Source of the DNA: an uncultured Bacilli bacterium
GTDB taxonomy: Bacteria; Bacillota_I; Bacilli_A; RF39; UBA660
Direction of reading: 5' to 3'
NCBI GenBank assembly: GCA_947589495.1
Contig: CANQAK010000003.1
Span: forward strand, 218-64,217
DNA length: 64,000 nt
Shown: positions 7,675 through 64,000 of the stretch, one piece after another
How positions within the stretch are numbered: position 1 is the first letter of the stretch
Layout of the letters: each line of letters opens with the position of its first letter
The notes under the pieces: model-generated
The model's database searches: none
Told to the model about the DNA's origin: nothing
Seen by the model: only the letters and a program-made list of their open reading frames with translations
Position numbers and translations under genes: made by a program

Positions 7675-8232
7675 CTAGTAGCCTTTATTTTTATAATATT
7701 CATATAATTCTTTAAATCTATTAAAATGAACAACTTCTCTTTGTCTTAAAAATAAAAGTGGTGCTAAAACATCTTCATCGTTTGTTAAATCAATTAAGTT
7801 TTCATATACTGCTCTTGCTTTTTGTTCAGCAGCCATATCTTCCATTAAATCTGCAATTGGATCAGCTGTAACGGCAAAATATGTTGCTGTAAAAGGTACT
7901 CCTGATGCATCAACTGGATAAATTCCTTTATTATGATCAGCATAATATGATGAAAGTCCTGCTTCTTCTAATTCTTTTAATGTCGCATTCTTAGTCAATT
8001 GGTGAACCATTGAACAAATCATCTCGCAGTGCCCAAGTTCTTCCGTACTAATATCGTTTAAAAGAGCTTTACCTTTGTCATCTGGCATAGTAAATTTTTG
8101 ACTAAAGTAACGCATTGCAGCAGCAAGTTCACCATTGGCTCCTCCAAATTGAGTTAATAAATATTTAGCCATTCTTAAATCTTTTTTACTAATACTTATT
8201 GGATAATTTGTGTGCTTAACATATTTAAACAT
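7675..8232 (-). CDS. cotJC: Spore coat protein CotJC / manganese catalase family
   Basis: FGGANGELAAAMRYFSQ and EELGHCEMI di-metal ferritin-like motifs. Adjacent to a CotJB-like gene. Confidence 0.85.
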   Translation of the reverse strand: MFKYVKHTNYPISISKKDLRMAKYLLTQFGGANGELAAAMRYFSQKFTMPDDKGKALLNDISTEELGHCEMICSMVHQLTKNATLKELEEAGLSSYYADHNKGIYPVDASGVPFTATYFAVTADPIADLMEDMAAEQKARAVYENLIDLTNDEDVLAPLLFLRQREVVHFNRFKELYEYYKNKGY

Positions 8233-8719
8233 AAATATTACCCCCTAAATTTTCCCATGACCATGGTCCATTAATCCATTCATATTTTTCACCACTAGTT
8301 TCATTTATTGTAAGTGGTCCATAACTTTTAATATATTCTTTTTTAGCTTCTTTTTCTTCTTTAATAAATTCTTCTAATAACATTAATGCATTTCTATCTT
8401 CTGGATGTAAATCTAAATATAGATTCATATCGTTAATAGCAAATGAATATTGCATAACATTAAATAATTTAGCTTCTCTATCATTTCTAGGTTTAATATT
8501 TACATATGTTAAATTCTTATATGGTTTATATTCATCTTTAAACATGTTTCCTCTTAAAAATCCTTCTTTGGCAGTTAAAAATTTACTAGAACTCATGTTA
8601 CTCATACTTTTCATATTACTCATGCTACCCATATTAGACATATCTTGTTTAGTATTTTGTAATCCTGCTAAACTTAATAATGAAAAATCTAAATCGATAT
8701 CGTTATTGTCAAATAACAT
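8225..8719 (-). CDS. cotJB: CotJB-like spore coat protein with an N-terminal CotJA-like segment and an MSN repeat
   Basis: The C-terminal half (FAINDMNLYLDLHPED...YGPLT) matches the CotJB pattern. The upstream segment EGFLRGNMFKDEYKPY resembles the CotJA core. Confidence 0.65.
   Translation of the reverse strand: MLFDNNDIDLDFSLLSLAGLQNTKQDMSNMGSMSNMKSMSNMSSSKFLTAKEGFLRGNMFKDEYKPYKNLTYVNIKPRNDREAKLFNVMQYSFAINDMNLYLDLHPEDRNALMLLEEFIKEEKEAKKEYIKSYGPLTINETSGEKYEWINGPWSWENLGGNIYV
8588..8641 (-). repeat. Six imperfect 9-nt tandem units (ATG AGY AAY) encoding MSN/MGS/MKS
   Basis: Read directly from the sequence: DMSNMGSMSNMKSMSNMSS within the cotJB-like ORF. Confidence 0.8.
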
Positions 8720-8777: not shown

Positions 8778-9458
8778 CTATTTTATTGCTTCAAATTCAT
8801 AAATATCTAATAATTCTTCTAAATCATCAGCTTTTAAAGATGTTCCATTAACACCATCTAAAATGTTAGTATCTAATATTTCCCCATTTCTAACATATAT
8901 TATGGCAGGTATTTGTTCTAAATCTTTTATATCTAAACTTTTTTCTATTGTTTCTAAGTAATTATTATCACTTTCTTTTAATTTAGTTAAATCAACATAA
9001 TAAAATATATCATTTAATTTATATTTATCTATTAATCTTTTTAAACCCTTCTCTAAATTATAAACATCTTCATCTTTAGTATATCCTAAATAAATAAAAT
9101 AAGATGATGGTGCTTCTTGCCTTATCTGACTTAAAGAATTTAAGTCATTGATGCTTGAATCAACAGTATTTGATGATATTAAATAACTTGTCATTAACTT
9201 TTCTTCTTCTTTTACTTGATACCATTTAAAGATATATAATACTAAAAGTATTGCTCCTAAAAGTATCGCTAGAGCTATTATATAATTTTTAGAATCTATT
9301 TTCTTTTCAATAACTACTTCTTTTGTCATTTTTTCTTTAGGAGCTTCTTTTTTTACATTGCTACTTTTGGTAGCATTACTCCTTTTTTTAGTAGCAGTTT
9401 TAGTTGATGTTTTAACATTTTCTTTTTCTTTAGTAACATCAGTCTTTTTTTGACTCAT
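8778..9458 (-). CDS. Membrane-anchored thioredoxin-fold-like protein lacking CxxC
   Basis: K-rich N-terminus, one TM, and a C-terminal pattern (FIYLGYTKDED...IPAIIYVRNGEILD) that is thioredoxin-like but has no cysteines. Confidence 0.4.
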   Translation of the reverse strand: MSQKKTDVTKEKENVKTSTKTATKKRSNATKSSNVKKEAPKEKMTKEVVIEKKIDSKNYIIALAILLGAILLVLYIFKWYQVKEEEKLMTSYLISSNTVDSSINDLNSLSQIRQEAPSSYFIYLGYTKDEDVYNLEKGLKRLIDKYKLNDIFYYVDLTKLKESDNNYLETIEKSLDIKDLEQIPAIIYVRNGEILDTNILDGVNGTSLKADDLEELLDIYEFEAIK

Positions 9459-9579: not shown

Positions 9580-12045
9580 CTAACTCTCTATGTAGAAAGG
9601 ATTATCATATGTTCCTGAACCTGCAATTTTAACATTGTTCTTTAGATAGAAGACAGGACGAACCGAACGCATAGCGCTCAAATCGAAGATATAGATTTTG
9701 CCATCTATATCCACACCCCATGCATTGAAGTAAACACCTGTACTGAAACGCCCAATACGCGTCATGGTCCATTCTTGATAAGTTGTACTACTTGATTCAT
9801 TATTAATTTCATGTATCCAGCTTCCTTGACATGTTGTGTAATTATTTTTGCAATTGTATGTATGTCCTGTTGCACTTATTGCATATAAATAGTCACTTAC
9901 ATACATCAATCCTATTGATGATTCTTCACTTGTTTGTTGCCACTTTGTTCCTTCACTTTTTGGTACTAAAATTCCATTTGCATTATAATATTGTGTTGCT
10001 ACCTGTCCACTTTCTATTTTATATACTTCTTCTGATGTTATTGTACCCATATATTCTTCTCCTATGTCTCCATACCACCATTTTTGTGGTTCTATTTTTT
10101 CTTGTACTGTACTATCTAATTTACTTAAGAATGAACCACTTCCATCATTCAAAGTTTTATACATGTCACTTTGTTCCCATGCTGGACAGCCTTCTTTTGA
10201 ACCACAATAATTACTCTTTGATGAATCATTAGTTGATTTACTATTCCATGCAAACATATTTGTTCCACTTTTATTATATCTTATTTGTTTTATTACCTTT
10301 ATATTTCCTTCTGGAGTAATTCCTATGATTCGATACATATTATCATCGTATCCACTACTACTTGCATTGCAACTATTTTTTCCAACTTCTTTCAAACATA
10401 TATAGTTTTTTACATTTTTTCCCTTTAATGTATCTGCTCCTTGATATCTATACATTCCCCCAACTAAAGTTTTACTTAAAGTCTCTGTATCATCTGCCAA
10501 TCTTAACGTTTTTTCTTGATCTGTTGGTATTACTTCTGTTAATGTATATGGATCATCTACTGTTCCACTTCCATATAATGTTATATTACTCTTTAAATAG
10601 AAAACTGGGCGAACCGCATATCCAGTACTCAAAACATTATAATCAATATTTCCATTTGAAGTTACATACCATCCACCATAACGATTATCAGAATTACTAT
10701 ACAATCCCATACGCGTCATGATCCATTCATATCTTTCATTTCCAGACGTCGCTATTCCATTATTACTCATATGTATCCAACTGGATTTACATGTACTGTA
10801 ATCACTTTTTCTACAACTTGTATTATGTCCTAAACTGCTTTCTGCATATGCATAGTCATGTATATACATTAATCCTATATTGGCTTGTATTTTATTTGTC
10901 CAAATCCGATCTTCTATATATTTTCCATCATCTGGACTATAATATTTAGTATTTTCTTTACCTGCTTCTATTTTATATACTTCCTCTGTTGATATACTGG
11001 AATCTATATAATCCTTACTTATATCTCCGTATATCCATTGTTGTGGTTCTATTATATTTTTTATTTCTTCTTTTAACGAATTATAATAATCTTCATTTAA
11101 TGTACTATATATTTTACTTTCTGGCCATTCTTTATTTACAGAATTATCATCCCACCATTTTATCGCATTTCCATATCTTGTTTGTTTTATGACTTTTATA
11201 TTTCCTTCAGGAGTGATTCCTATAATCCTGTACATTTCATCACTTTGATTTGAACATTTTCCTTCTAAACATAAATAATTACTTTTTACTTCATTATTTG
11301 TTCCTTGATATCTATACATTCCTCCAACTAAAGTATCACTTAATGTGTTATTTGTATCATCACTTTGTAATTTCTTTACTAATTTTGCTCCACTATCTTC
11401 TCCACATTTTAAGTTATCTGCACTTATTGTTATATCTAACTCTTTATCTGCTAAATAATCTTGTTCATCATTCTTTTTATTAACTAAATATGCATATGCA
11501 TCTATTTTTGATGAACTATTTCCTGTTACTTTAAATGTTATTCCTTCATATACTTTTTTACCTTCATCTTTTATATCAAATAAATCTAGTTCTTGTTCTT
11601 CAAATGTATTATTTTCATCTCCCTTTAAATGTAAAAATAAATCTCCTTGTTCTAATGCTTCTCCCATTGAACCTTGTGTATTAGTCATTGTTACTGTTAT
11701 ATCTGCTGTACATTCATATTTATCTTCATTCGTTGCATCAGTTATTTCAAATTTAGTTATGGTATGTGTTCCTTCTTCTTCAGTTAACACATAATTCTTT
11801 TCATCATCTGCATAATAATTTCTTGCATTATTTGGTGCCATATCTTCTTCATCTACTATTATTTTTAACTTTGGTGTTGGTACTGAAAGAGTTACTAACC
11901 CTGATTCTTCTGTTTGTAGTGTTATTACACTACTATTTGATGTATTTATTACTCCCATATTAAAGTAAGCATATGTAGCTCCAATTACTAACACTATCAT
12001 TATTGCTACTCCAATTATTAATTTTACTTTTGTTTTTTTATCCAT
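9580..12045 (-). CDS. Secreted modular protein A: SipW/TasA-type signal, beta-rich N-domain and two lectin-like modules (family member 1)
   Basis: N-terminus KVKLIIGVAIMIVLVIGATYAYFNM. Two internal repeats each contain LVGGMYRYQG, MYRIIGITPEGNIKVIKQ, IGLMY.(H/S)DY.YA, EW(I/T)MTR, VRPVFYLK and GSGT..(D/N)P(F/Y). Confidence 0.8.
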   Translation of the reverse strand: MDKKTKVKLIIGVAIMIVLVIGATYAYFNMGVINTSNSSVITLQTEESGLVTLSVPTPKLKIIVDEEDMAPNNARNYYADDEKNYVLTEEEGTHTITKFEITDATNEDKYECTADITVTMTNTQGSMGEALEQGDLFLHLKGDENNTFEEQELDLFDIKDEGKKVYEGITFKVTGNSSSKIDAYAYLVNKKNDEQDYLADKELDITISADNLKCGEDSGAKLVKKLQSDDTNNTLSDTLVGGMYRYQGTNNEVKSNYLCLEGKCSNQSDEMYRIIGITPEGNIKVIKQTRYGNAIKWWDDNSVNKEWPESKIYSTLNEDYYNSLKEEIKNIIEPQQWIYGDISKDYIDSSISTEEVYKIEAGKENTKYYSPDDGKYIEDRIWTNKIQANIGLMYIHDYAYAESSLGHNTSCRKSDYSTCKSSWIHMSNNGIATSGNERYEWIMTRMGLYSNSDNRYGGWYVTSNGNIDYNVLSTGYAVRPVFYLKSNITLYGSGTVDDPYTLTEVIPTDQEKTLRLADDTETLSKTLVGGMYRYQGADTLKGKNVKNYICLKEVGKNSCNASSSGYDDNMYRIIGITPEGNIKVIKQIRYNKSGTNMFAWNSKSTNDSSKSNYCGSKEGCPAWEQSDMYKTLNDGSGSFLSKLDSTVQEKIEPQKWWYGDIGEEYMGTITSEEVYKIESGQVATQYYNANGILVPKSEGTKWQQTSEESSIGLMYVSDYLYAISATGHTYNCKNNYTTCQGSWIHEINNESSSTTYQEWTMTRIGRFSTGVYFNAWGVDIDGKIYIFDLSAMRSVRPVFYLKNNVKIAGSGTYDNPFYIES

Positions 12046-17715: not shown

Positions 17716-17755
17716 AAAACACTTCAATTTTTATCTTTGAAGTGTTTTATTTTTT
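17715..17755. terminator. Bidirectional terminator between the ATPase and modular protein B
   Basis: Hairpin AAAACACTTCAA / TTGAAGTGTTTT with flanking A and T runs. Confidence 0.65.
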
Positions 17756-20150
17756 ATGATGCTATGTAGAATGGATCAGAAGTTGTACCTGCTCCTTCTA
17801 ATTTTACATCATTCGTTAGATAGAAGACTGGACGAACTGCATAAAAATAATTAAAACTTCCACCTCCGACAGTCCCACTCACGAGAACCGCCCATGCATA
17901 GAAAGTATTGCCCGAACTACCTTGACCAAGTCGTGTCATAATCCATTCATCATTAGAATTATTTCCATTATTACTCATATGTATCCAACTAGTTTTACAA
18001 TTTGCATAATCTACTATACAACTTGATGTTGATCCTGTTCCACCTAATGCATATGCATAATCATGTATATACATTAATCCAATTGGTACTAATTCTGTCC
18101 TTTTTGTCCATTTTTGATCTGTGATACTTTTTTTTGTCAAAGGTTCCAAATATTTTGTTGTTGCTTGACCTGTTTCTATCTTATATGCTTGTTCTGCTGT
18201 TATATGCTCACTATCTACTAAATCATTACCTATATCTCCATACAACCATTTTTGTGATTCAATTTTTTCTTTTATTTCACTATTTAAATTATTATAAAAA
18301 GTTGTATTTAATGACGTATATACATAGCTATTTATCCACTCTATATTTGTTGTATAACTACTAAACCATGTAGTTGTATCTCCATATTTCGTTTGTTTTA
18401 TTACTTTTATACTCCCTTCTTCAGTTATTCCTATAATTCTATACATGTTATCATCGTAACCATTAGTTTTTGCACTAGTACATCCATTTGATCCTACTTC
18501 ACTTAAACATATATAATTGTTTACTTTATTACCATTTAATGTATCTGATCCTTGATATCTATACATTCCTCCGACTAATGTCGAGCTTAACGCATTAGTT
18601 GTATCATATTCTCTTAAATAATTTTCTTGCTCTGTTGGTATTACTTTGGTTAATGTGAATGGATCTTCTGTTGTTCCACTCCCATATAATTGGATATCAT
18701 TTTTCAGATAGAAGACTGGGCGTACCACATACTCAGCACTCAAGTAGCTATAGTTGAACCGTCCATCCGAACTCACAAACCACGCACCGAAGTAAGGGTT
18801 CGGGCTACTATACCTACCACGACGCGTCATAGTCCATTCATATTGCTCCTTTCCGGTTGTTGCTCCACCATTATTACTCATGTGTATCCAACTTGTTTTA
18901 CAATCTGCATAATCTTGTATACAACTTGATGTTGATCCTGTTCCACCTAATGCATATGCGTAGTCATGTATATACATTAATCCTATATTGGCTGATACTT
19001 TTTCTGTCCATTTTTGATCTTCGATATAATCTCCACTATCTGGGTCATAATATTTTGTATTTTCTTGCCCTGTCTCTATTTGATATGCTGTATCTGTAGA
19101 TATATTAGAATTTATATACTCATTACTTATATCTCCATACATATATTCCCATTCTTGTATTTTTCCCTGTATTATTGTATCTAAACTATTATAGAAATTT
19201 GTATTTAGTGTTTCAAATATATCTGCATCTAGCCACTCTTTATTATTCTCTATTCCTGAATAACCTGTCCACCACTTCATTGCACTTCCATACCTTGTTT
19301 GTTTTATGACTTTTATATTTCCTTCAGGGGTTACTCCTATAATTCTATACATATCATCTGATCCTGAAGAACATTTTCCTTCTAAACATAAGTAATTATT
19401 AACTTGATCGTTAGTACCTTGATATCTGTACATTCCTCCGACTATTTCTTTACTTAATCCACTATTTTTTTGTGATTTTAAATATGCTGTTACTGGACCA
19501 TCTACATTATTTACACATTTTAGGTTTTCTGTTTTAATTGTTAAATTTAATGCCTTACCTGCTAAATGATTTTGTTCATTTTCTGTATTTTCTATATAAG
19601 CATACGCTTGTATATCTTGTGATGTGTTTCCCTCTATATTAAATGTTACATTACTATATGTTTTTGTTCCAATTGTTGATAGTTCACTTAAATCTAATTC
19701 TTCTTCATTTAAACTTGCTCCACTTAAATGGATAAACATATCTCCTTCTTTTAATGCTGCTCCCATTGAACCATCTGTTACATCTAATTCTAATTTTATA
19801 TCTGCTGTACATTGGTATTTAGCTGTCTCTTTTCCATCTGTTACTGTTAATCGTGCTATAGAATATGTTGCTGCATTTTGTTCTGTTTTATATGATTCTG
19901 TGTCTAAATTGGTTGCATAATACTTTCTTTGATTTGCTAAAGACATATCTGATGCTTTTAGTTTTATATATAACTCTGATACTGGACTTGATAATGTTAC
20001 TAATCCATTATTTCTTGCTTGTACTCTTATGACACTACTATTTCCTAAAGTTGTTACTCCCATTGTAAAGTAAGCATATGTTGCTCCTACTACTAAGACA
20101 AATAAAACTGCTACTGCTATTATTATTTTTACTTTATTTTTCTTATCCAT
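17754..20150 (-). CDS. Secreted modular protein B (family member 2)
   Basis: N-terminus KVKIIIAVAVLFVLVVGATYAYFTM. Same N-domain as A and two modules with the same motif series. Confidence 0.8.
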   Translation of the reverse strand: MDKKNKVKIIIAVAVLFVLVVGATYAYFTMGVTTLGNSSVIRVQARNNGLVTLSSPVSELYIKLKASDMSLANQRKYYATNLDTESYKTEQNAATYSIARLTVTDGKETAKYQCTADIKLELDVTDGSMGAALKEGDMFIHLSGASLNEEELDLSELSTIGTKTYSNVTFNIEGNTSQDIQAYAYIENTENEQNHLAGKALNLTIKTENLKCVNNVDGPVTAYLKSQKNSGLSKEIVGGMYRYQGTNDQVNNYLCLEGKCSSGSDDMYRIIGVTPEGNIKVIKQTRYGSAMKWWTGYSGIENNKEWLDADIFETLNTNFYNSLDTIIQGKIQEWEYMYGDISNEYINSNISTDTAYQIETGQENTKYYDPDSGDYIEDQKWTEKVSANIGLMYIHDYAYALGGTGSTSSCIQDYADCKTSWIHMSNNGGATTGKEQYEWTMTRRGRYSSPNPYFGAWFVSSDGRFNYSYLSAEYVVRPVFYLKNDIQLYGSGTTEDPFTLTKVIPTEQENYLREYDTTNALSSTLVGGMYRYQGSDTLNGNKVNNYICLSEVGSNGCTSAKTNGYDDNMYRIIGITEEGSIKVIKQTKYGDTTTWFSSYTTNIEWINSYVYTSLNTTFYNNLNSEIKEKIESQKWLYGDIGNDLVDSEHITAEQAYKIETGQATTKYLEPLTKKSITDQKWTKRTELVPIGLMYIHDYAYALGGTGSTSSCIVDYANCKTSWIHMSNNGNNSNDEWIMTRLGQGSSGNTFYAWAVLVSGTVGGGSFNYFYAVRPVFYLTNDVKLEGAGTTSDPFYIAS

Positions 20151-22731: not shown

Positions 22732-22959
22732 TTAATATGGTCTTGGATAAGTTGGATAATAGTAACTATAACTATAATTACCATAAGGCATATTTGGATT
22801 AAATCCTCCACCAGTTGGAGCAACATTATAAATTGGTCGAGGTCTTGTTAGTCCAACTGCAGCACCTCCAACTAAAGCTCCACCTAAAAATGGTAATAAA
22901 AAGTATCTATCATTGTTATAAAAAGTATTTGGTCTATACATATTAGGGTAATATTTCAT
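22732..22959 (-). CDS. Small Y/P/G-rich protein with a central glycine-zipper hydrophobic segment
   Basis: 75-aa ORF with low-complexity Tyr/Pro/Asn ends around LLPFLGGALVGGAAVGL. Confidence 0.4.
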   Translation of the reverse strand: MKYYPNMYRPNTFYNNDRYFLLPFLGGALVGGAAVGLTRPRPIYNVAPTGGGFNPNMPYGNYSYSYYYPTYPRPY

Positions 22960-32234: not shown

Positions 32235-34400
32235 TTATTTTATGTAGAATGGATCAGTGGTTGATCCTGAACCTCCAAGTTCTATATCAGACTTCAGATA
32301 GAAGACAGGGCGAACCGCATTCGTAACGTCCAAGGAGTTGCGGTAGACAGCGCCAGTCTGACCCAAATACCAAGCATAGAAGACAGTACTTGAGCTACTA
32401 TACCGACCTACACGTGTCATGGTCCATTCAGAATCAGATGCATTTCCATTTTGTTTCAAATGAATCCACCCATTATCTATACATTTTTTATTGGAACTGT
32501 CTGTTTTTGAATAATGACATCCATCTTCTTTTGATTGGTAATAATAATCATGTAAGTAGATTAATCCTATGTTACCTGTTTTTTTTCCATCCCATTTTTT
32601 TGTTATGATTCCATTTTCTTTTTCTGATGGTAATTTTCCATAGTATTGACTATTTTGTTTCCCTGTTTCTATTTGATATAAATTTTCTCCTGTTAAATTT
32701 GTTACATATTGATATTCTATATCACCATACCACCAGTCCCATTCCTGAATTTTATTTTTTATTTCTTCACTTAGTGAATTGTAAAATGTTTCATTTAGTG
32801 TTGTATACATTTCACTATTTGGCCATTCGGGACAGCCATTTGTTTGATCACATTTATATTTTTCATTTGAATCAGTTTCACTATATTTCGTGTTCCATCT
32901 ATATGTACTTCCATATTTTGTTTGTTTTATGACTTTTATATTTCCTTCTGGGGTTATTCCTATGATTCGGTACATATCTTCACTTTTATATCCACATTTT
33001 TCATCATTTAGTTTTCCTAAACATATATAGTTATCTACACTACTTCCTTGATAACGATACATTCCTCCGACTAAGGTTGAACTTAACGTTTTATTCGAAT
33101 CTTTATCTCTTAAATAATTTTCTTGATTTGTTGGTTCGGTTAATGTAAATGGATTATCTACTGTTCCACTTCCATATAATTTTATATTATTCTTTAAATA
33201 GAAAACTGGGCGCACCGCAAACGGAGCGTGCAAGCCGTTGCTGTTGACATGGCCAAGTGCATTTACATACCACGCGCCAAAGAAAGTGCTCGCGCCATTA
33301 TGCCGACCTATACGCGACATGGTCCATTCGTTATCAGATGTATTCCCATTTTGCGACAAATGCATCCAACCATCATTCATACATTTTTTATATACACTAT
33401 CTCCTTTTTCATAATGACAATTGTTTTGTTGTGATTGATAATAATAATCATGTAAGTATATTAATCCTATATTAGCTTTGTCGCTCATTTTTGTCCATTT
33501 TATATCTTTTGTCGATTCTATTAATGTTCCACTTTTATCATAATATTGTGTTGATGCATTTCCTGTTTCTATATTATACACTTCATCTGCTGTAGTTAAC
33601 GTTCCAAGATAATCATATCCTATATCTCCATACCACCATTTTTGTGGTTCTATTTTATTTTGTATATTATCATTAAGTGAATTGTAAAATGTGTCATTTA
33701 ATGTTTTATATATTTCACTTTGTTCCCATGTTGGACAATCTTCACCTGTACAATAATAATCTTCAGAACTATAGTTTGAATCTACACTATATTTTGTATC
33801 CCATTTATATTTCCCTATACTGGTTTGTTTTATAACTTTGATATTTCCTTCAGGAGTGATTCCTATGATTCGATACATATCATCTGATTTTTCAGAACAT
33901 TTTCCTTCTAAACATAAGTAATTATTTACTTGGGCATTTGTTCCTTGATATCTATACATTCCTCCAACTGGTTCAGAACTTAACCCATTACTCTTTTTTA
34001 ATTGTTCTATTAATTCTTTTGCATTACTCTTATCAAAATATACATAACAATATACTGCTTGATTTGTTCTTACACTAAATTTTTTATCTGTATATGTTAA
34101 TACATTTGCTACTGCTAATCCTTTAGAATCTATACATCCTGATTTATCTGCATTATAATTATATCCTTCTGTTGGAAAATCATTTTTAGTACTTTGTTTA
34201 TATTCTCCATTTTCTTCTTGTAACATAATTGCAAACATTCCACTTTTTGATGAATTATTATTAACAAGTTTTACTTCATCTAATTGTGTTTCTTTATCCG
34301 ATAATTTATTGTTTATTAAAAATATACTACTTACTATTGTTAGTATTACTATTATTAATATTATATATATTCTATTTTTTGTATTAAGTTTATTTTTCAT
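32235..34400 (-). CDS. Secreted modular protein C (family member 3, different N-terminal domain)
   Basis: Signal anchor IYIILIIVILTIVSSIF, a ~130-aa N-domain, then two modules with PVGGMYRYQG/LVGGMYRYQG, MYRIIGITPEGNIKVIKQ, IGLIYLHDYYYQS, EWTM(S/T)R, VRPVFYLK and GSG..(D/N)PF. Confidence 0.8.
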   Translation of the reverse strand: MKNKLNTKNRIYIILIIVILTIVSSIFLINNKLSDKETQLDEVKLVNNNSSKSGMFAIMLQEENGEYKQSTKNDFPTEGYNYNADKSGCIDSKGLAVANVLTYTDKKFSVRTNQAVYCYVYFDKSNAKELIEQLKKSNGLSSEPVGGMYRYQGTNAQVNNYLCLEGKCSEKSDDMYRIIGITPEGNIKVIKQTSIGKYKWDTKYSVDSNYSSEDYYCTGEDCPTWEQSEIYKTLNDTFYNSLNDNIQNKIEPQKWWYGDIGYDYLGTLTTADEVYNIETGNASTQYYDKSGTLIESTKDIKWTKMSDKANIGLIYLHDYYYQSQQNNCHYEKGDSVYKKCMNDGWMHLSQNGNTSDNEWTMSRIGRHNGASTFFGAWYVNALGHVNSNGLHAPFAVRPVFYLKNNIKLYGSGTVDNPFTLTEPTNQENYLRDKDSNKTLSSTLVGGMYRYQGSSVDNYICLGKLNDEKCGYKSEDMYRIIGITPEGNIKVIKQTKYGSTYRWNTKYSETDSNEKYKCDQTNGCPEWPNSEMYTTLNETFYNSLSEEIKNKIQEWDWWYGDIEYQYVTNLTGENLYQIETGKQNSQYYGKLPSEKENGIITKKWDGKKTGNIGLIYLHDYYYQSKEDGCHYSKTDSSNKKCIDNGWIHLKQNGNASDSEWTMTRVGRYSSSSTVFYAWYLGQTGAVYRNSLDVTNAVRPVFYLKSDIELGGSGSTTDPFYIK

Positions 34401-47849: not shown

Positions 47850-48791
47850 ATGATAAATAAAAGAATAATGAAAGAAAGAACAAAATTAGATAAGTATGAA
47901 AATTATTTGAATGATTCTTTAACTACTTTAGAGAAAATTAAAATTTTAAAAGATTTATATATGGAAGTAAAAGAATTTTCACTAAAATGTTGGCTTCAAG
48001 AACCAGAAGCATTAAGTGATTTTTGGATTATTAAATTTAAAATTCTTGATTGTGAAAATTATTTAGCTAATAAGTTAATAACGGATGTTAAACCTCTTCT
48101 AAATTTTAATTTTCCTCAATACCTTACTTTAAATTCTTTAAGTGATGAAGAAATACTTGATTATTTAATTAGTAAAACTAGAAAATATTTAAAAAATATA
48201 TCTTTAAAAGATGAAAAAGAATTTGAAAAATTACCATTAACTAATTTTTGTAAAATGGCTTCAAAAAATATCATGAGACTTTGTAAAAATTATAATATTA
48301 ATGCTAAATTATTAAGAATTAACCCTGGTTTTACTTACAAAGAACAACTTTATGATGGTTCTGGTTATCATTATTTTGTTATTGTTACTTTAAATAACCA
48401 AAAATATTTATTAGATGCTACTTATAATCAATTCTTTTTATTAGAAAGAAGTATTTTATCTCGCTTAGGAGTATTAGAGCTTACAGGTTGTAATCCTGGA
48501 ATATTTATGTATATAAAAGAAGAAAGAAAAAGGATTGCAGAAAAAATATTAAAAGATGGATGGATTAAATTAGAAAGTGATACTTTAAAACATTATTTAG
48601 ATGGTTTTGCACTTTCATTTAGAAATGGCCTATACTATGAAATGACTCATGATTTTTCTTATGAAACTAATTATACAACGCAAAATTATGAAGACTTTTT
48701 AAATGATGAAGATACTCAATTAGCTCATGAAGGAAAATTAGTTTTAGGTTATCAAACAAGACCACTTAAAGAGCCAAAATTAAAATTTTAG
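47850..48791 (+). CDS. Transglutaminase-like (Cys-His-Asp) fold protein, tandem paralog 1
   Basis: Candidate triad NFCKMAS ... GYHYFVIV ... LLDATYNQF. No signal peptide. Confidence 0.45.
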   Translation: MINKRIMKERTKLDKYENYLNDSLTTLEKIKILKDLYMEVKEFSLKCWLQEPEALSDFWIIKFKILDCENYLANKLITDVKPLLNFNFPQYLTLNSLSDEEILDYLISKTRKYLKNISLKDEKEFEKLPLTNFCKMASKNIMRLCKNYNINAKLLRINPGFTYKEQLYDGSGYHYFVIVTLNNQKYLLDATYNQFFLLERSILSRLGVLELTGCNPGIFMYIKEERKRIAEKILKDGWIKLESDTLKHYLDGFALSFRNGLYYEMTHDFSYETNYTTQNYEDFLNDEDTQLAHEGKLVLGYQTRPLKEPKLKF

Positions 48792-48800
48792 GAGGTTTTT

Positions 48801-49754
48801 ATGAAAAGATGGGATTTAATTAATAAATATATGGAAAGTATGGATGACTATTACAATAAAATATTTAAAGAAAAAGATGTTACTAAAAAAATTGAAATCT
48901 TAACAAAATTATATGAATATGTAAGAGAAATTTCTTTAGAATGGTGGGAACAAGATGAAAATATGGCAAGGAATTTCGTTTACATTTTAAGAGAGATATT
49001 TGCTTGTGAAAAAGAATTACCAGATATTTTTATTTTAAATGTTAAACCTAAATATGAAGTTGTAAATTATCCAAAAAATACTAAAAATGATGAAGAAGTT
49101 TTAAATTATATTGTCCATCAAACGAGAATATTTTTACATGCTAAACTTACTTTTGGAACATTTATTGCTGATTTTTCTAATTTAGATTTAGTAAATGAAT
49201 GTGAAAGAAGTTCTAATTTTGTTATTAAAGTGTGTAAACAACTGGGATTAGAAGCTAAAAAAATTAAGATAACTTCTGGTTTTGCACCATATTATCATTT
49301 AGAAGGAGATACTGGTTATCATTATTTTGTTATTGTTAATTTAAATAATAATGAATATTTAATAGATTGTACTTATAACCAATTTTTCTTATTAAAAAGA
49401 TGTTTAATTGAAAGACTTGGAATTATGCATGTACGTAGTACTGCTCCAGGAATTTTTATGATAATTAATGACCAAAGAAAAAAGGTAGCGGAAAAAATAT
49501 TAAAAGATGGATGGATAAAGTTAGATGGAATAGTTCTAAAACATTATTTAGATGGCTTTGCCATCTCACATAGAAATGGTCTTTATTATGAAAAAAATCC
49601 TAATAGTTCATTTGATACATCATATACACCATCTGATTATGAAAATTTTTTAAAAGGAATAGATAACCAAATTAATTATGAAGGAAAAGAAGTTTTAGGC
49701 TTTCAAAAAAAGCCTTTAGAAAATCCAAAATTAATTTTAAAAAAAGAAACGTAA
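48801..49754 (+). CDS. Transglutaminase-like (Cys-His-Asp) fold protein, tandem paralog 2
   Basis: Shares GYHYFVIV, (D/C)TYNQFFLL, AEKILKDGWIKL and KHYLDGFA with paralog 1. Candidate Cys lies in NECERSS. Confidence 0.45.
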   Translation: MKRWDLINKYMESMDDYYNKIFKEKDVTKKIEILTKLYEYVREISLEWWEQDENMARNFVYILREIFACEKELPDIFILNVKPKYEVVNYPKNTKNDEEVLNYIVHQTRIFLHAKLTFGTFIADFSNLDLVNECERSSNFVIKVCKQLGLEAKKIKITSGFAPYYHLEGDTGYHYFVIVNLNNNEYLIDCTYNQFFLLKRCLIERLGIMHVRSTAPGIFMIINDQRKKVAEKILKDGWIKLDGIVLKHYLDGFAISHRNGLYYEKNPNSSFDTSYTPSDYENFLKGIDNQINYEGKEVLGFQKKPLENPKLILKKET

Positions 49755-63679: not shown

Positions 63680-64000
63680 TTAAGAAACTATGTAGAATGG
63701 ATCATCGGATGTTCCATTTCCTTGAATTTCTGTACCAGACGATAGATAGAAGACTGGACGAATCGCGTTTAGAGTCTTTAAACTATTTTCGTAGACACTG
63801 CCACTCGAACGCACTAACAACGCACCGAAGTTATTGTTCGATTTATCCCAACGACCTATACGTGTCATGATCCATTCATCATCTAATGAATTTCCGTTAT
63901 TTTTCATATGCATCCATCCTTGCGTCTGACAATTAGTATATTGTGGATTTTTATCTGATTGACAATTGCCTTGTTTTGATTGGTAATAATAGTCATGTAA
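63680..64000 (-). CDS. Secreted modular protein D, C-terminal part only (family member 4, truncated by the window edge)
   Basis: The reading frame stays open to position 64000 (hand translation LHDYYYQSKQGNCQSDKNPQYTNCQTQGWMHMKNNGNS...). Ends with EWIMTR...IRPVFYLS...GNGTSDDPFYIVS. Confidence 0.75.
   Translation of the reverse strand, partial: LHDYYYQSKQGNCQSDKNPQYTNCQTQGWMHMKNNGNSLDDEWIMTRIGRWDKSNNNFGALLVRSSGSVYENSLKTLNAIRPVFYLSSGTEIQGNGTSDDPFYIVS

Follow-up and report, generated by a model that had tools for sequence, protein, structure and literature searches.

G+C-rich module tips in a surface-protein gene of an uncultured Bacilli bacterium: probable footprints of a diversity-generating retroelement

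The DNA analysed here, referred to as the window, is a stretch of 64,000 nucleotides from an uncultured Bacilli bacterium (assembly GCA_947589495.1, contig CANQAK010000003.1, positions 218 to 64,217), with a G+C content of only 24.5%. Gene B, an open reading frame (ORF) on its reverse strand (17754-20150), encodes a protein of 798 aa with an N-terminal signal or anchor, a beta-rich N-terminal domain and two tandem DUF6273 modules. The C-terminal ~45 codons of each module, here called the tip, are rich in G+C. With a probability of roughly three in four, the tips carry the footprint of a diversity-generating retroelement (DGR), i.e., they would represent the variable-region (VR) segments of DGR-type variable proteins that are secreted or exposed on the cell surface.

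Composition and variability of the tips

The tip of the internal module, B1 (18705-18839, reverse strand; EWTMTRRGRYSSPNPYFGAWFVSSDGRFNYSYLSAEYVVRPVFYL), and that of the C-terminal module, B2 (17817-17948, reverse strand; EWIMTRLGQGSSGNTFYAWAVLVSGTVGGGSFNYFYAVRPVFYL), lie within 1-2 nt of the positions given in a first-pass annotation, which had put their G+C content at 48% and 44%; the measured values are 50.4% and 43.9%, respectively. The parts equivalent to a VR extend from about 18719 to 18830 in B1 and from about 17831 to 17939 in B2. Both have a 3' boundary that resembles an initiation of mutagenic homing (IMH) site, CGC CCA GTC TTC TAT CTG in B1 (18705-18722, reverse strand) and CGT CCA GTC TTC TAT CTA in B2 (17817-17834, reverse strand), and all tips of the family end in CGY CCW GTY TTC TAT YTR. 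The window holds four paralogues (genes A, B, C, and the 3' end of gene D) with seven tips in all. Three others, E, F and G (P0006, P0014 and P0018), were recovered from assemblies of samples that carry the window strain, which brings the genome to 11 tips with a G+C content at third codon positions (GC3) of 0.24-0.60.

The codon usage of the tips was compared with a background of 16,486 codons from genes outside the family, by drawing synonymous codons from background usage for each tip codon. GC3 is 0.56 in B1 (0.14 expected, z=11.2), 0.30 in B2 (0.14 expected, z=4.1) and 0.44 in the seven window tips taken together (0.14 expected, z=21), compared to 0.13 outside the tips in genes A, B and C (0.10 expected, z=4.2). 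The shift toward rare codons reported at first pass therefore withstands a formal test, and the contrary outcome that the annotation had envisaged, codon usage that does not differ, was not observed; its description of both tips as enriched is correct in that both deviate significantly, but it overstated their symmetry, as B2 is clearly the weaker of the two. Since the tips exceed the synonymous expectation, the shift is one of codon choice and not only of amino-acid composition, which alone would predict a total G+C content of 33%, whereas 45.6% is observed. Among non-overlapping 135-nt stretches of the entire 64 kb, six of the seven richest in G+C are tips (C1, B1, C2, A2, B2 and D1), and the seventh is a tRNA, the only element found by an Rfam scan of the window. 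The G+C-rich tip B1 also creates a spurious antisense ORF of 79 aa (18690-18929, forward strand), which is present as annotated.

Base by base, the shift takes the form of a depletion of adenine. At third positions, A drops from 53% elsewhere in the same genes to 16% in the tips, while the share of G increases from 8% to 21% and that of C from 5% to 20%. The first-pass observation on arginine codons extends to nine tips (genes A-D and E), in which none of 32 Arg codons is AGA and one is AGG, although every gene uses AGA more than any other Arg codon outside its tips. The 22 invariant core columns of the seven window tips consist of 11 T, seven G, four C and no A; among G1, C1, C2 and B1, A occupies four of 50 invariant columns, whereas conserved control blocks within these modules have it in 43 of 92. 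The near-absence of A from invariant columns implies that the constant residues are encoded without adenine, as a DGR template repeat (TR) requires. Another statistic, the fraction of pairwise differences that involve an A, was discarded, because it amounts to ~63% also in control blocks of this A-rich genome.

The pair C2 and G1 is particularly informative in this respect: over 33 codons, 24 differences fall at codon positions 1 and 2 and only two at position 3, whereas third positions differ at 32% in the rest of the two modules. Judged from the aligned codons, this inverted pattern is what the AAY codons of a TR would be expected to yield when turned into NNY on a shared scaffold. The sharing of third positions far beyond the level of the flanks implies that the common template is much more recent than that of the flanks. 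The skew is weaker between B1 and G1 (24 differences at positions 1 and 2, nine at position 3). The closest sister tips of B1 are G1 (69% identity) and C1 (64%). B2 has no sister tip with more than 58% identity, and its footprint is weaker than that of B1. A strong template footprint can be assigned to B1, C1, C2, G1, A2, D1 and F1, while the weaker footprint in B2, A1, E1 and E2 is probably older; within gene B, B1 has the appearance of recent writing and B2 that of an older tip in partial decay toward A+T.

The tips were also described at first pass as hypervariable, which is apt for comparisons between paralogues and between homologues, but not for the available assemblies of this strain, among which no variation was found. 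The tip core is 23-41% identical between homologues and the flanks are 43-74% identical; between B1 and the homologue P0012, flanks of ~85% identity enclose a core with 7 of 28 identical residues. The mean pairwise identity of the tip core (0.30) is among the lowest in the module alignment, and indel-rich module segments (alignment columns 85-126) diverge as much. What is unique to the tips is the combination of length-preserving variation with a shift in composition.

Richness in G+C is not required by the fold, since the tip GC3 among 55 homologous modules of rabbit-gut metagenome-assembled genomes (MAGs) ranges from 0.05 to 0.67, with about eight reaching at least 0.4. About 15 tips that lie far from any reverse transcriptase (RT) gene, with a GC3 of 0.4-0.67 and many NNC codons, occur in other rabbit-gut MAGs (L013, L015, L017, L018, L032, L035, L040, L048 and L050), and a common scaffold is seen among the tips of a single MAG (L040, L017 and L035 in Lapin-002__bin25; L017 and L032 are 75% identical). 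From these sequences, G+C-rich tips without a nearby RT appear to be a clade-wide phenomenon.

DGR cassettes in related Bacilli

A degenerate 20-mer, GTNCGYCCWGTYTTCTATYT, derived from the sequence conserved at the 3' ends of window tips, was used to scan metagenome contigs, and two of them, L096 and L133, carried both a homologue of the module and an RT. In L096, a target gene of 529 aa is followed by G+C-rich hairpins, a TR of 100 nt, a MutS_I-like ORF, a gene for the accessory variability determinant (Avd; NCBIfam DivGenRetAVD, E=4e-8; Pfam bAvd) and an RT of 359 aa (RVT_1) with the motifs IGNMTSQ and YMDD. The target has the same ...VVGATYAYF signal as gene B, aligns to it from the signal peptide through module 1 (E=2e-18), and the alignment places its VR precisely over B1 and B2. 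The targeted diversification that the first-pass annotation implied is therefore supported insofar as the tips align with the VR of a proven DGR target in a relative, although neither RT nor TR is found in the window itself.

More cassettes of this design were found via homologues of the RT (L186-L193 and L196-L201). The ENA series of the window strain (ERZ272491xx-2492xx) holds this family of DGR RTs, in other samples and MAGs; one of these cassettes, with a VR/TR pair, belongs to the rabbit-gut MAG CANQIU01 of that series. In six VR/TR pairs of the relatives, 98 of 99 mismatches fall on adenines of the TR, which consists of 30-37% A. The TRs have a G+C content of 46-48% and the VRs of 50-62%, in loci of 26-28%; a DGR-written patch in this clade is thus a G+C-rich island by construction. 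L096 and L133 share one common TR but differ in their VRs, which shows that this DGR system is active. The homology between VR and TR in L096 and L186 stops at CGCCCAG or CGCCCG, the same codons that mark the 3' ends of the window tips, and an antisense ORF covers the VR/TR region of L096 (8310-8522, forward strand), the same artefact as in the window.

In each of the six genuine targets, a conserved G+C-rich hairpin follows the VR at a distance of 35-45 nt on the 3' side, within the codons for G-S/T-G-T-A-x-D-P (L096:8470-8500, L133, L186:4610-4630, L188, L192 and L196:135-155). Its stems show compensatory changes (AGCGGC/GCCGCT versus ACTGGC/GCCAGT), and this DGR family probably uses it to recognize its targets. 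In the genuine targets, G+C-rich codon usage continues up to the stop codon. The remainder of the cassette has a fixed order (L096:5932-8232; L186, L187, L191 and L196), in which TR, MutS_I-like ORF, Avd and RT are followed by a conserved ORF of 75-85 aa that matches no family; the MutS_I-like ORF, 123-126 aa in length, matches MutS domain I weakly (21.6 bits, cut-off 20.6).

If the window tips were written in the same manner, a separate TR would be transcribed, and the DGR RT would copy the transcript while misincorporating nucleotides opposite template adenines. The resulting cDNA would then replace a VR of ~110 nt up to the fixed 3' boundary, ...CGC CCA G. Constant residues would have to be encoded without adenine (CGN for Arg, GGY for Gly, GTC, TTC and TGG), and variable residues would originate from AAY codons turned into NNY, so that in a genome of 24% G+C the written patch would come out rich in G+C, poor in A and full of seemingly rare codons. 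The TR and RT of this genome might be located on another contig or might have been lost recently, and the window tips could be remote targets or copies of DGR-written cassettes.

Rewriting, relics and other origins

Several observations weigh against a DGR origin of the tips. No RT was detected in the window, neither with the pattern Y[AVILMFC]DD over six frames nor by tblastn with Bordetella bRT (a query that detects the true DGR RT in L096 with E=1e-21), and the contigs retrieved for paralogues D, E, F and G likewise yielded none. A blastn search with word size 7 recovered only the seven coding tips of the window and no additional TR-like copy, and no TR was found on the fetched contigs of E, F and G. 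A scan of GTDB genomes with a module profile yielded 57 loci (630 kb), all from rabbit-gut Bacilli MAGs, and not one of them has an RT within 10 kb or a TR. The TRs of the relatives with cassettes do not match the window tips. A matching TR would take the form of a non-coding repeat of ~110 nt that fits GCNTGGNNTNTNNNTNNNNNNGGNNNNNTCNACNNNANCNNCTTGNNNGNTNNGNNTGNGGTNCGCCC, with A at most N positions. A scaffold pattern has B1 and G1 as its sole matches in 201 loci and none in IMG/VR, and another scan of IMG/VR DNA gave a single chance match, in an SNF2 helicase. Among the listed matches of two RT homology searches (3465 and 1947 matches), no RT could be traced to this genome; the RTs P0144, P0165, P0167, P0187 and P0180 were rejected as candidates, as they come from other samples or species.

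The tips themselves add to these reservations. The hairpin of the genuine targets is absent from the seven window tips, G1 and F1, and the 110 nt downstream of the window tips have a G+C content of 24-32%, compared to 43-54% in genuine targets. The seven window tips vary in as many as 67 of their 105 core columns, which is difficult to reconcile with the share of A in real TRs (30-37%); a single TR for all seven was rejected, since such a template would need ~64% A, while the trio of G1, C1 and C2 varies at 39% of columns and is borderline compatible with one TR. Identity of the tips across strains and reads, which the first-pass annotation had named as evidence against diversification, was seen in part: the tips of B are the same in a second assembly (L001) and the tip of D is the same in five others (L002-L006), but these contigs of the same strain are ~100% identical with 2-6x coverage and make for a weak test with little power. 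Finally, A1 and its near-identical copy in paralogue P0008 differ only by a change from S to N and another from T to I, of the G-to-A and C-to-T type, which looks like ordinary drift toward A+T.

Whether the tips are still being actively rewritten must be answered tentatively, with the odds somewhat short of even: recent writing is favoured by the third positions that C2 and G1 have in common, while caution is called for by the lack of the hairpin and of variation between assemblies. It is only slightly less probable that the tips are relic VRs, for which the working RT and TR have been lost or which, as copies, are no longer competent targets, and which now drift toward A+T. Relics would account for the failure to find an RT or TR of this genome in three protein searches and in contig look-ups, for the lack of the downstream hairpin that all six genuine targets have, for the identity of the tips across assemblies, for the GC3 gradient of 0.24-0.60 over 11 tips, and for the direction of the changes between A1 and P0008.1. 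However, third positions that differ at 2 of 33 codons between C2 and G1, compared to 32% in the flanks, indicate that the writing of these tips, or their copying and later diversification, took place well after the paralogues had separated, and a GC3 of 0.53-0.60 against a genome background of 0.09 speaks against long neglect. Moreover, the MAG is fragmented and assemblies tend to break at these genes, so a missing RT contig is to be expected. Two metagenome contigs of this strain, L194 and L195, end 30-90 nt past genes F and G, where assembly is interrupted by low coverage or by a repeat, which might be the TR. After the stop codon of gene G, L195 contains a G+C-rich imperfect hairpin (2120-2195; ATCGCCCAGGGTGGCTTTTGGCGCCCAGGCGAT), followed by a terminator-like hairpin.

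The most far-reaching version of a DGR origin, in which one DGR serves at least eight dispersed genes for surface proteins, which carry 11 or more VR-like tips, including VRs in the middle of genes and none with a hairpin, is unlikely; it would call for hairpin-independent retrohoming in trans or for writing in two tiers combined with gene conversion. Less probable still is a spread in two steps, by which the DGR would rewrite a single target next to the RT, and the VR cassette would then be copied to paralogues by homologous recombination or gene conversion via the flanking EW.MTR ... VRPVFYL sequences. The mosaic modules of P0008 and P0007 are in line with such copying, as are the sharp end of G+C richness just past ...TTCTATCT, with the hairpin region not carried along, and the recurrence of G+C-rich tips without nearby RT or hairpin in relatives, where the hairpin is likewise absent from the GC3-rich tips of rabbit-gut MAGs. 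On the other hand, no donor locus was identified, there is no near-identical pair of tips as recent conversion would produce (the best pair shares 74%), and the direct writing of remote DGR targets in trans is well documented (PMC6602519, PMC7517822).

Far less room is left for ordinary divergence of paralogues under diversifying selection on a surface loop, with the G+C shift as a by-product of composition, rare-codon tuning or G+C-biased gene conversion and no retroelement involved. This very improbable explanation draws on the abundance of Gly, Arg, Ala, Ser and Trp in the tips, which raises the expected G+C content from 24% to 33%, and on other module segments that are as divergent at the protein level. 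Amino-acid content accounts for a part of the shift only, though, as GC3 is three times the expectation (z=21), and many homologues with the same fold remain at baseline GC3. Nor would it predict invariant columns depleted of A, the absence of AGA codons for Arg, an excess of changes at positions 1 and 2 with conserved C or T at position 3, or the exact positional identity with the VRs of proven DGR targets. That a donor richer in G+C, such as a phage receptor-binding protein, recently contributed the tip segments by horizontal transfer can practically be dismissed: many phage DUF6273 proteins match the fold and an insertion sequence (IS) element lies beside gene D, but a tblastn search with the B2 module gave no match among 50,697 phage records, the neighbours are housekeeping genes (thymidine kinase, RecO, Era, FtsK, CotJ), and a patch of only ~120 nt recurs at the same position of the module at least 11 times in one genome, with conserved boundaries.

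The probable VR nature of the tips has practical consequences. In very A+T-rich genomes, a G+C-rich and A-poor patch of ~120 nt at the end of a lectin-like module can flag DGR-written DNA even if the contig carries no retroelement, which is often missing from MAGs because assemblies break at VR/TR repeats. The tips also point to a large, dispersed family of predicted secreted proteins with two binding modules, plausibly a variable surface or adhesion repertoire of uncultured gut Bacilli. If the tips are still rewritten, VRs in the middle of genes and without a hairpin would bear on what a DGR needs to recognize a remote target.

Known systems, gene family and surroundings

The cellular DGR cassettes of the relatives (L096/L133, L186-L193 and L196) are among the systems closest to the window genes. 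Their targets are homologous, with the same signal peptide and with GGMYRYQG-like, MYRIIG and EWT.SR...VRPVFYL motifs, and they share the 3' boundary GTGCGCCCAGTCTTCTATCT and G+C-rich VR islands in A+T-rich DNA. However, these targets have a single module, and they combine G+C-rich codons up to the stop, a GSGTAxDP hairpin and a TR 230-400 nt downstream, all three of which the window genes lack. The prototype DGR is that of Bordetella phage BPP-1, with Mtd as target protein, bRT and Avd. The window tips would share with it adenine-specific mutagenic retrohoming into a C-terminal VR of the C-type-lectin (CLec) type with a fixed IMH boundary, but their proteins have no detectable sequence similarity to Mtd, C-type lectins match in a Foldseek search against the PDB only with E>1, and the window tips lack the cruciform of the prototype (GRNA loop, 4-34 bp from the VR).

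In DGR targets of gut phages, the VR lies at the C-terminal end of DUF6273 (PMC11792537, PMC10743442). These DUF6273 or C-type-lectin-like proteins, which include targets of Faecalibacterium prophages, “tentaclins” and Mtd-like gut-phage targets (PMC11792537, PMC10743442), resemble the window proteins in the Pfam domain, the C-terminal VR in a surface beta-hairpin region and the AAY-rich, A-avoiding codon design. They differ in being phage tail or decoration proteins encoded beside their own RT and TR, whereas the window genes are chromosomal, encode signal peptides and usually two modules with a VR-like tip each, and have no RT or TR within 64 kb. Remote targets are known from Treponema denticola, where hairpins follow only some of eight DGR targets (PMC6602519), and also from cyanobacteria (PMC7517822). 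The TvpA paralogues of T. denticola and the cyanobacterial “remote VPs” (PMC6602519, PMC4891356, PMC7517822) are likewise scattered CLec-type paralogues far from the RT, with hairpins at some only and transposases sometimes nearby. In contrast to the window tips, for which no TR was found, they match a known TR at non-A positions, and known VRs are located almost exclusively at the 3' end of genes, while A1, B1 and C1 lie in mid-gene. The window genes are thus of a known kind, that of CLec/DUF6273 DGR variable proteins with RT-distal VRs, but go beyond the textbook case in three respects: two VR-like tips per gene with one in mid-gene, a dispersed family of at least eight genes in a small A+T-rich genome, and the absence, throughout, of the hairpin typical of RT-adjacent targets in this clade.

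The paralogues of gene B in the window are all encoded on the reverse strand. Gene A (9580-12045, 821 aa) has the tips A1 (10594-10728, GC3 0.24) and A2 (9643-9774, GC3 0.45), gene C (32235-34400, 721 aa) has C1 (33195-33329, GC3 0.56) and C2 (32295-32429, GC3 0.53), and the 3' part of gene D (63680-64000) includes D1 (63743-63877, GC3 0.44); the complete gene D, seen in L002, encodes 417 aa with one module. The modules of gene B comprise ~285 aa each, from GGMYRYQG to EW.MTR...(32 aa)...RPVFYL, and the protein is 52% identical to A and 48% to C. Pfam DUF6273 (PF19789), whose match spans the modules to their end, scores above its gathering cut-off of 23.5 bits in A (25.5 bits) and C (31.4 bits) and below it in B (21.4 bits). 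The signal or anchor of gene B, ...VVGATYAYFT, resembles the SipW type and shares the GATYAYF motif with the L096 target, while the NCBIfam model for SipW signal peptides, TIGR04088, gave 13.3 bits in A (E=0.071, cut-off 19) and no match in B.

AlphaFold2 models of gene B reached a predicted local distance difference test (pLDDT) score of 75 for the full protein and 88.7 for the single module B2. In the module model, the tip region corresponds to strands 221-264, a surface beta-hairpin region. Foldseek searches with the module model against viral models (BFVD) gave 21 matches with E<=1e-3 (best 4e-9), many of them named DUF6273; against the PDB, CLEC9A, MBP-C, CD23, langerin and the mannose receptor lead the matches of the B2 module, all with E>1 and template modelling (TM) scores below 0.3. 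A profile search against PDB sequences gave no match, and the full-length model matched only jelly-roll proteins in its N-terminal beta domain, which is uninformative.

The paralogues are mosaics, with whole modules shuffled between genes or genomes. P0008 combines the N-terminus of C with a module nearly identical to A1, tip included, and P0007 joins the N-terminal domain of A to unrelated modules. Genes of the family have FtsK, P-type ATPase, Clp-type ATPase, thymidine kinase, RecO, Era and CotJB/CotJC-like genes as neighbours; a prophage location was rejected because of these housekeeping surroundings and the lack of a phage homologue by tblastn. Upstream of gene D, past window position 64000 (L002:3-1180), ORFs for a DUF6431 protein (178 aa) and a partial integrase- or transposase-like protein (189 aa) constitute the IS element mentioned above.

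Genes for CotJB and a CotJC-like Mn-catalase lie side by side at 7675-8719 (reverse strand), next to an ORF with a DUF6568 match (8778-9458), and this pair suggests that the organism may form endospores despite its G+C content of 24.5%. A local G+C peak of 0.385 coincides with an ORF of 75 aa (22732-22959, reverse strand) that contains little other than Tyr, Pro, Asn and Gly (MKYYPNMYRPNTFYNNDRYF...YYYPTYPRPY) and matches no Pfam family. Two adjacent paralogous genes on the forward strand (47850-48791 and 48801-49754), unrelated to the tip family, share a 198-nt repeat that is 72% identical (48586-48783 and 49537-49734).

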